Below are positions 60,760 through 61,503 of a stretch of DNA of 64,000 nt, piece by piece; the stretch's first letter is position 1; every line of letters begins with the position of its first letter. Source of the DNA: a virus (Duplodnaviria; Heunggongvirae; Uroviricota; Caudoviricetes); the IMG/VR virus record IMGVR_UViG_2718218131_000002; one strand, written 5' to 3'. Made by a program: the position numbers and the translations under genes. The notes below the pieces were generated by a model, which saw only the letters and a list, made by a program, of their open reading frames with translations, searched no databases and was not told the origin of the DNA.

Positions 60760-60815
60760 TGAAATTAGGGCCCGTTCTGGCTGGCGGGTCCTTTCCGGCG
60801 ATCCGGTAGGCTACG

Positions 60816-60827
60816 GGGCGGCGACCT
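60816..60827 (+). other. satellite cosN (GGGCGGCGACCT), identical to the prophage cosN
   Basis: Region 60787-60850 matches the prophage cos at 19823-19890 through cosN, then diverges downstream in the cosB direction. Confidence 0.75.
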
Positions 60828-60960
60828 TGCGCGTTTTCGCTATTTATGAGCCTTTTTCGGGTGCTGGTGGTGGTTTTGTTGTTCGCTCTATCTCTATGAA
60901 TAAAAAGGAAAAGATAAAACCAATACACCAACCTGAAACATTACTTAAGTGGGGATATTG

Positions 60961-61503
60961 ATGAAATCGTACCTGATGAACAAAAAAAACATGGCGCAAA
61001 GCTGCCGTGTAAGTGCGACAGCGTTCGACAAGTGGGGAGTGACTCCCGTTGAACGTAAAGGCCGCGAGGCGTTTTATGATGTTGCCAGCGTAATAGACAA
61101 TCGGGTTAGCAATGCAATTAACCAGATTACAGACGACAAAGGCGAGATTGATAATGATGAACTTTTACGAGTCAGGATCAGATTACTGACAGCACAGGCG
61201 GAGGCGCAGGAACTTAAAAACGAGCGCGATCGCGGTGACGTGATTGATACAGAGTTTTGCATGTACGCGCTTTCAAAACTGGCGAGTCAGATTTCATCAA
61301 TCATGGACAGCCTCCCGCTTACTATGCAAAGGAGCTTCCCACAGATGGCCCCCGCCATGCTGGATGGCCTGAAAAAAGAAGTTGTCAGAGCCTGTAACGC
61401 ATGCACAAAACTTGATGAAAACATCCCGCGAATACTGTCCGATTATCTGATGGAAACTACCGGAAATGTGCCTGATAAGTTTCAGCCGGATAAAGACAAG
61501 TAA
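60961..61503 (+). CDS. Nu1-like small terminase homologue (candidate packaging-redirection protein)
   Basis: LLTAQAEAQELKNERDRGDVIDTEFCMYALSKLASQISSIMDSLPLTMQRSFPQ parallels Nu1 LTRAQADAQELKNARDSAEVVETAFCTFVLSRIAGEIASILDGIPLSVQRRFPE; sits ~135 bp after cosN as Nu1 does. Confidence 0.7.
   Translation: MKSYLMNKKNMAQSCRVSATAFDKWGVTPVERKGREAFYDVASVIDNRVSNAINQITDDKGEIDNDELLRVRIRLLTAQAEAQELKNERDRGDVIDTEFCMYALSKLASQISSIMDSLPLTMQRSFPQMAPAMLDGLKKEVVRACNACTKLDENIPRILSDYLMETTGNVPDKFQPDKDK

Follow-up and report, generated by a model that had tools for sequence, protein, structure and literature searches.

How does a chromosomal island that has no large terminase gene come to be cut and packaged by the terminase of a helper phage when its recognition site differs from that of the helper? 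The question is raised by a 64,000-nucleotide stretch of DNA (IMG/VR virus record IMGVR_UViG_2718218131_000002; the whole stretch is called the window below), in which a lambda-like prophage occupies positions 1 to ~45000 and a second element lies at 51943–62459. This 10.5 kb element is an EcCI-type phage-inducible chromosomal island (PICI) of the EcCICFT073 family, because EcCICFT073, the model PICI of Gram-negative bacteria, uses the same site with the same backbone, and it carries a cos site immediately upstream of a gene for a small terminase subunit (TerS). The original prediction, made for the cos–terS region, was that the island keeps the cleavage site of the prophage, has a different recognition site and encodes a cognate small terminase. 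Our analysis supports each of these points, as we find a shared cos core, conserved cosB blocks of the island's own, a real TerS, purifying selection on its gene and a joint switch of cosB and protein among related islands. What a redirection of packaging predicts at the level of sequence is therefore present, and from it we infer the use of a helper's large terminase (TerL).

The window contains exactly two copies of the cosN cohesive end GGGCGGCGACCT, at 19853–19864 in the prophage and in the same form at 60816–60827 (+ strand) in the island (0.25 occurrences expected, one mismatch allowed), and both copies have the cosQ motif GGGTCCT 30 nt upstream. The island cosQ, at 60786–60792 (+ strand), stands 30 nt before the nick as it does in lambda and is invariant in five divergent islands; the region had been started at 60787, one base late. 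Aligning the two cos regions, as the original prediction had proposed, gives a conserved core, with 59/64 identical positions from cosQ to bp 34 to the right of the nick (...CGCTATTTATGA), followed by 8/13 in bp 35–47 and by nothing alignable from ~bp 48 onward (bp are counted from the cohesive end throughout). Divergence, expected about 25 bp past cosN, was found to start ~22–35 bp past the cohesive end. The last segment common to island and prophage is the conserved CGCTATTTATGAG block (60838–60850, + strand; bp 23–35), which forms the junction at which the modules diverge, and in the alignment of both cos regions the island has no counterpart of the prophage R3, R2 and R1, the lambda R3/I1/R2/R1 series being absent. 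In lambda the I2 segment of the cosN–cosB spacer is required for termination (PMC4669245), and nicking and termination independent of cosB both depend on cosQ, cosN and the bp 13–35 segment (Feiss et al. 2015, PMC4669245). The island thus retains precisely cosQ-cosN-I2 in common with the resident lambda-like phage, with the remainder replaced.

This island has one cos only. The prediction of a Nu1-like gene at a lambda-like distance held for the gene and failed for the distance, as the terS ATG lies at bp 146 from the left end, compared with bp 190 in the window prophage, bp 191 in lambda and bp 89 in N15. On the other side of the nick, the 17-nt spacer from cosQ (60797–60815; CGATCCGGTAGGCTACG) nearly matches its counterpart in the resident prophage (CGATCCGACAGGTTACG, 19834–19852) and unlike the spacer CATATGGACCCGTTACG of the CFT073, IHE3034 and L008 islands. 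Because the spacer resembles that of the prophage and not that of its sister islands, the left side, too, seems to have recombined with a lambda-type cos.

We examined the region beyond the junction in a five-copy cosB alignment drawn from the window, Kosakonia, Superficieibacter, a metagenome contig and prophage-embedded satellites, with the cos of IHE3034 also collected; scanning genome contigs for the module returned only four loci. In this alignment cosQ is invariant, cosN is nearly so and CGCTATTTATGAG (bp 23–35) is again invariant, followed by a variable stretch, and the cohesive end itself varies by host (GGGCGGCAGACT in Kosakonia, GGGCGTCGACCT in Superficieibacter). The first conserved block after this is an R3-like element, GCTGGTGGTGGTTTTGTTGTT (60863–60883, + strand; bp 48–68), the proposed main binding site, still putative, of the island TerS. 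Across E. coli, the metagenome contig, Kosakonia, Superficieibacter and the prophage-embedded island 18/21 of its columns are invariant, with the consensus G(C/T)(T/A)GGTGGTGGT(G/T)TTGTT(G/A)TT. Its GTTGTTGTT core resembles N15 R3, which is GAGGTTGTTGTT at bp 48–59 from the cohesive end (PMC4669245), although the best 10-mer matches between the island's GGTGGTGGTTTTGTTGTT (bp 51–68) and N15 R3 carry two mismatches.

Separated from the R3-like block by an AT-rich variable spacer is a putative inverted R2-like element, CCAATACACCAACCTG (60920–60935, - strand; bp 105–120), which occupies the position of lambda R2 and is kept at the same bp in four more loci (consensus for bp 108–120, AATA(C/T)A(C/G)C(A/C)AC(C/T)T). 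A third, R1-like element, AGTGGGGATATTG (60948–60960, + strand), overlaps the terS ribosome-binding region; in the window it is degenerate (9/13) and its assignment is tentative. A direct third copy overlapping the terS ribosome-binding site is clear in IHE3034 and in locus L018, and in IHE3034 the second and third elements form an 11/12 inverted repeat (1/200 shuffles as good). No inverted match of the kind that makes up the N15 rR2 layout was found inside terS; with the inverted element standing upstream of the gene at bp 105–120 instead, the predicted layout is Monarch- or lambda-like. Taken together, the conserved cosB blocks are probably phylogenetic footprints of TerS binding sites.

The gene that follows (60961–61503, + strand) encodes a 180-aa protein that was characterised by BLASTP, Pfam, fold comparison and selection analysis, and that by these measures is a full-length Nu1-family small terminase with an N15-type DNA-binding domain. 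Its alignment with the prophage Nu1 (36% identity, E 4e-35) reaches the end of Nu1, and Pfam Phage_Nu1 (PF07471) is matched with 81.6 bits, where the cut-off is 30 (E 6.6e-23), over residues 64–147 only (model positions 78–161). The closest phage relative is N15 gp1 (46% identity, E 3e-54), and the likeness is unevenly distributed: the N-terminal 60 residues are 50% identical to N15 gp1 and 30% to the resident Nu1, residues 61–130 are 47% and 51% identical, and residues 131–167 are 35% identical to either. Within the N-terminal domain the island protein and N15 gp1 share a turn and wing that are shortened relative to lambda, together with an AFDKWGV recognition region. Their recognition helices, SATAFDKWGV in the island and SVQAFDKWGV in N15, are similar but not identical, and shared specificity has been inferred only from identical recognition helices (Feiss et al., PMC4669245).

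A phmmer search of the island TerS against all sequences in the PDB returned nothing below E 0.07, neither Nu1 nor Rpp, and because Nu1 and Rpp structures were out of reach of such a search we turned to fold comparison. The AlphaFold model (mean predicted local distance difference test score, pLDDT, 66; N-terminal blocks 70–82) is a winged helix-turn-helix followed by long helices, with residues 5–56 modelled as a strand, two helices, a hairpin and a helix. The best matches of the N-terminus were 7lwr_A, a 54-residue chain of a viral DNA-packaging entry (template modelling score 0.73, root-mean-square deviation 1.8 A), MerR-type domains and 6hn7_B, the lambda TerS chain of an RppC–TerS complex; Foldseek E-values are weak (>=0.1) for this domain, which is small. 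The possibility that the island protein is itself an Rpp was rejected, as BLASTP against CFT073 RppA gave E 1.4 and the phmmer search of the PDB, whose sequence set should include the published RppC structures (6hn7 is present in the fold library), found no Rpp match. Rpp proteins are 144–153 aa long and are without the C-terminal, TerL-binding region of TerS (PMC6739421, PMC9026076). The ratio of nonsynonymous to synonymous substitution rates (dN/dS) of terS is 0.09–0.29 overall and 0.14–0.19 in the C-terminal part, with purifying selection acting on each of the three parts of the gene. The next open reading frame (ORF) encodes a 93-aa protein and is followed by attR, with no adjacent large terminase gene.

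If cosB and the DNA-binding domain form one unit, then they should change together among related islands, and this is what we observe. The islands of CFT073, IHE3034 and the L008 type share one cos core to bp 34, and their left flanks, with the terminator hairpin upstream, are identical; past bp 34 they differ in cosB and in protein jointly. CFT073 combines a ...GGTGACACCACCACCAC... cosB with RppA, IHE3034 and the window island combine a GGT/GTT run with an N15-type TerS, and L008 combines a lambda-like R3/R2/R1 cosB with ATGTCGTTTCTTTCTT-type repeats and a TerS with a lambda-type N-terminus. The L008 TerS (6001–6585, 194 aa; also in L009–L011) is chimeric, its lambda-type N-terminus being fused at ~residue 78 to a C-terminus that is 97–100% identical to that of the window island TerS, and the L008–L011 PICIs are also found at the phoQ site. 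Outside the islands, phage N15 and two Alteromonadales prophages, in which TerS is followed by a 649–656-aa TerL and a portal gene, have the N15-type domain together with a GTTGTTGTT-type element at bp 50–62, and every N15-type domain that we found adjoins a GTTGTTGTT-type R3. Because cosB and protein switch together past the shared core, the unit of specificity, as read from these comparisons, consists of cosB together with the DNA-binding domain, and exchange takes place where that core ends.

Two further observations were made on these cosB types. The L008 cosB and N-terminus resemble a very common prophage type, present in 1092 genomes at up to 7 places per genome. The proposed Rpp site of EcCICFT073 cos1 (ACCACCACC, bp 55–63; the run at 2577–2594 of L003 is bp 48–65) is the reverse complement of the GGTGGTGGT run, which in the TerS-type islands lies at bp 50–58 (window 60865–60873), in the same place and on the opposite strand relative to the Rpp type and next to an unrelated protein.

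The reading that we prefer, to which we assign a probability of about 0.6, is that the island TerS binds the island cosB and delivers a helper TerL to the shared cosN, where we infer the binding, the recruitment and the exclusivity alike. In such a model a lambda-like helper would induce the island, which would replicate, and its TerS would bind the R3-like GGT/GTT run (bp 48–68) and probably also the inverted element at bp 105–120. The Nu1-like C-terminal part would then recruit the helper gpA/TerL, which would nick the shared cosN and translocate island concatemers into helper proheads, and termination at the next island cos would need the shared cosQ-cosN-I2 core only. Work on lambda, 21 and N15 provides precedents for these steps: a chimeric TerS with an N15 N-terminus and a lambda C-terminus functions with lambda TerL, termination requires cosQ, cosN and I2 and not a matching cosB, and lambda- and 21-specific terminases fail on cosB-N15 (~1e-4 vs 2.5 per cell) (PMC4669245). 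Given this failure of lambda- and 21-specific terminases on N15-cosB DNA, the helper TerS alone should fail to initiate at the island cosB. The module would in this way be the cos-phage counterpart of the private-TerS strategy of the pathogenicity islands of Staphylococcus aureus (SaPIs) and an alternative to the adaptor, Rpp, that EcCICFT073 uses. The N15 terminase also packages lambda DNA (PMC4669245), and since the island cosB relates to the N15 class the module may confer an extra specificity instead of an exclusive redirection of packaging.

Several results weigh against this model. The GTTGTTGTT/GTTGTT core lies at bp 60–68, 9 bp farther from cosN than in N15, and how far R3 lies from cosN is critical in lambda. 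The mutual likeness of the R3-, R2- and R1-like elements of the window is at chance level in a 12-mer self-similarity test (9/12, with 163/200 shuffles as good), and a repeat search of the five cosB regions reported no repeats; because the repetition test failed in the window, the case for the cosB elements rests on their conservation across genera. A scan of the island spacer for the consensus of the integration host factor (IHF) found no site with <=2 mismatches, so that an I1-like site is not established. The part of TerS presumed to bind TerL has just 35% identity with either the resident Nu1 or N15 gp1, and a search among the phages in our collection for a TerS C-terminus like that of the island gave a best match of 51% and no candidate cognate helper (an indexed protein search for the same C-terminus gave only fragments). 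The resident prophage may supply a terminase yet is probably a poor helper, because of three insertions of insertion sequences (ISs). Finally, induction with mitomycin C gave hardly any transfer of EcCIIHE3034, which carries the same type of module (<1 to 40 transductants per ml; PMC6092414, Table 1).

In a rival model the island TerS would act not by itself but as an Rpp-like partner, co-assembling with the helper Nu1 through its central region into a mixed oligomer that binds the island cosB, so that the helper Nu1 brings TerL and helper packaging is poisoned. Residues 61–130 are the best conserved against lambda Nu1 (51%, with an invariant R..RL..AQA.AQELKN), the more diverged C-terminal part (35%) has no good match to a known phage TerS, and in the sister island EcCICFT073, where rppA fills the slot that terS fills here, packaging strictly requires helper TerS bound by Rpp (PMC6739421). 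We nevertheless regard such a mixed oligomer as unlikely: the C-terminal 50 residues, a region with which Rpp at 144–153 aa dispenses (PMC6739421, PMC9026076), have been kept at a dN/dS of 0.14–0.19 with the Nu1 pattern A..N...LDE.IP..L..Y, and TerS and Rpp have no sequence similarity. The conservation of cosB bears in turn on a model of interference only, in which the island TerS mainly blocks helper reproduction, by titrating helper TerL, misdirecting it or competing for cos, and the island is packaged through its cosN core with cosB barely needed. PICIs typically hinder helper packaging (PMC6739421), and EcCICFT073 cos plasmids are packaged, less efficiently, by lambda and phi80 without Rpp (PMC6092414), so the shared core alone allows some packaging. 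It would be surprising, however, for a dispensable cosB to keep R3- and R2-like blocks across genera at a fixed distance from cosN and to co-vary with the type of DNA-binding domain, and we therefore hold this model to be improbable.

That the cos and terS are an inert remnant, left from a decayed N15- or Monarch-like prophage that became fused to an integrative island, would explain a terS without an accompanying TerL, the poor mobilisation of EcCIIHE3034 (PMC6092414) and the degenerate R1-like element of the window. Against this, purifying selection acts on an intact ORF, 759/5426 complete E. coli genomes contain the module and always as cos plus terS, the same architecture recurs in Kosakonia, Superficieibacter and prophage-embedded satellites, and the island has a regular PICI organisation at the site of the mobilisable EcCICFT073. 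A dead prophage remnant was rejected on the grounds of selection and distribution, and an inert module is accordingly very improbable.

A broader proposal combines elements of the above, and as a whole we consider it tentative and rather doubtful. It holds that E. coli PICIs carry interchangeable cassettes of cosB plus DNA-binding domain, of the kinds Rpp, N15-type TerS and lambda-type TerS with a PICI-specific C-terminus fused to it, and that recombination exchanges these cassettes exactly at the boundary of the shared core, bp 35. In the same proposal the N15-type TerS would be more than a substitute subunit, as it would mix with the helper Nu1 via its central assembly region and poison helper packaging, the island cosB would be unusable by lambda-type helpers alone, and the GGT run found on opposite strands in Rpp-type and TerS-type islands would be a common ancestral recognition site.

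The closest described relative of the module is that of EcCIIHE3034, whose TerS is 85% identical to that of the window island, with a nearly identical DNA-binding domain. The GGT/GTT run and the CAATACACCAACCTG element recur in its cosB, and its gene order is that of the window island (capsid, decoration, small ORF, cos, terS, 93-aa ORF). EcCIIHE3034 differs in lying next to clpS and not at roxA/phoQ, in having another ORF upstream of cos and in its CFT073-like cosQ–cosN spacer. Fillol-Salom et al. (2018) reported that the islands of IHE3034 and 18098 (EcCI18098) encode TerS and transfer poorly, and analysed neither cosB nor TerS type (PMC6092414). The existence of TerS-encoding islands is thus already known from EcCIIHE3034. 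EcCICFT073 cos1 with RppA shares with the window island the integration site, the backbone, the cosQ/cosN/I2 common to lambda-like helpers, a non-phage cosB and a specificity gene directly downstream of cos that is followed by the same 93-aa ORF. In contrast to TerS, its Rpp is a 144-aa adaptor without the Nu1 C-terminus that must bind helper TerS (PMC6739421, PMC9026076), and EcCICFT073 has a second, inverted cos where the window island has one cos.

N15 likewise has a lambda-like cosQ/cosN followed by a GTTGTTGTT-type R3, but is a complete phage that itself encodes a TerL and has its accessory inverted site inside gene 1, at bp 249–260, whereas the window island has extra GGT repeats before the core and the inverted element at bp 105–120. 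Like the Monarch prophage group (PMC4669245), the island seems to place a second, inverted site upstream of terS. For the SaPIs, PMC6739421, citing Ubeda et al. 2007, describes a satellite TerS (TerS-S) that reads a site specific to the satellite and presumably pairs with helper TerL, as we propose here; these islands differ in packaging by headful (pac), in their unrelated TerS family and in needing a separate inhibitor of helper TerS, Ppi. No Ppi-like gene was identified in the window island. P4, SaPIbov5 and 11capE (bioRxiv 10.1101/2022.07.18.500453) resemble the island in having the helper cosN and relying on the helper terminase nuclease, yet they keep the helper recognition site and encode no TerS, while the window island swaps cosB and adds a TerS. 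We also noted satellites (L013–L017; terS at 5001–5513, truncated capsid gene at 7122–7898) that are in a helper-embedded configuration and yet carry terS, whereas 11capE is described as being without terS. The embedding site of these satellites is the E gene of lambda-like prophages, with the helper Nu1 >10 kb away.

Among complete E. coli genomes, cos1-rppA was found in 97/5426, so that in a crude megablast count under the same criterion, in which RppB and RppC variants fall outside the 97, the cos–terS module is ~8 times commoner. It was found in O157:H7, O26:H11 and extraintestinal pathogenic E. coli lineages. An apparently plasmid-borne PICI (H73/L020, NZ_CP031350.1, 187 kb) was discarded, as the sequence is a chromosomal segment carrying roxA, phoPQ, purB and icd; its plasmid label is probably an assembly or labelling error. 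The papers that we found cover only Rpp islands, the pac-type TerS of SaPIs and satellites that copy the helper cos (PMC6739421, PMC9026076, bioRxiv 10.1101/2022.09.08.507074, 10.1101/2022.07.18.500453), and we found no description of the N15-type domain, the conserved cosB blocks or the cassette exchange at the core boundary, a weak negative given that most subscription journals lay outside the search.

If the island TerS does pair directly with lambdoid large terminases, then the module represents a mobilisation route other than Rpp, the range of helpers would be set by TerS–TerL compatibility instead of TerS–Rpp binding, and the mechanism would bear on the spread of islands that carry virulence and defence genes. 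The module is also a natural experiment in terminase specificity, in which the cleavage and termination core is constant and cosB and the recognition domain are swapped, and the position of the swap coincides with the specificity boundary defined by the lambda/21/N15 hybrids of Feiss and colleagues.

The remainder of the island fits its assignment to the PICIs. It sits between roxA and phoQ, a site also used by EcCICFT073, and is bordered by an exact 26-bp direct repeat, CGGTGTAGTTAATGGTGTAGTTAATT, at 51943–51968 (attL) and 62434–62459 (attR). Annotation was taken from the RefSeq record of E. coli SLK172, which is 100% identical to the window, and from the ORF list. The gene order is int, alpA, icd-like, DUF4222, primase, SSB, gpE-like, gpD-like, AlpA-family, cos, terS and the 93-aa ORF, with the tyrosine integrase (51990–53219) at one end of the island and co-oriented on the + strand with the alpA-type helix-turn-helix (HTH) regulator (53594–53782) and the DNA primase family (pri-rep) protein (55985–57802, RefSeq annotation). 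Neither the RefSeq annotation, the ORF list nor Pfam gave a TerL, portal, tail or lysis gene on the island, and the only virion or packaging genes annotated are the capsid E-like gene, the D-like gene and terS. The lambda gpE-like major capsid homologue (58973–60013, + strand; Pfam Phage_cap_E, E 5e-41) and the gpD-like head decoration homologue (60023–60364, + strand; Pfam HDPD) are, as judged from their distance to the prophage, an old island-specific lineage and no recent captures, because they are only 41% (BLASTP) and 40% identical to prophage E and D. Deletion of the gpE-like and gpD-like genes of EcCICFT073 gave no phenotype (PMC6092414). Just upstream of cos is a second AlpA-family HTH protein (60376–60759, + strand; Pfam Phage_AlpA), kept in the Kosakonia, Superficieibacter and prophage-embedded islands. 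The 93-aa ORF downstream of the packaging module (61515–61796, + strand) matched no Pfam family; it is 77% identical to the EcCICFT073 copy and is common to TerS-type and Rpp-type islands.

The resident prophage, as the nearest candidate donor of TerL, has its cos at 19823–20022 (+ strand), with cosQ at 19823–19829, the cohesive end at 19853–19864, R3 at 19903–19918, R2 at 19960–19977 and R1 at 20002–20018, and this cos reads almost identically to what we take to be the left end of lambda. Nu1 (20042–20587) and the large terminase A (20562–22487), both on the + strand, are intact, as are W, B, C, D and E, the portal and protease included. The three IS insertions (window 18511–19724, 27395–29702 and 43694–44668) are an IS3 that ends just upstream of cos/cosQ, an IS21 (istAB) that splits gpFI and an ISApl1 in the tail-fibre gene. 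The prophage also carries a tRNA Ile/Arg/Arg cluster and a nanS-like esterase (12115–12364 and 12853–14706), which are typical of the late regions of Stx phages; despite these features no stx genes were found in the prophage. At its right end (45052–46749) lie the type III effector genes espK and espO.

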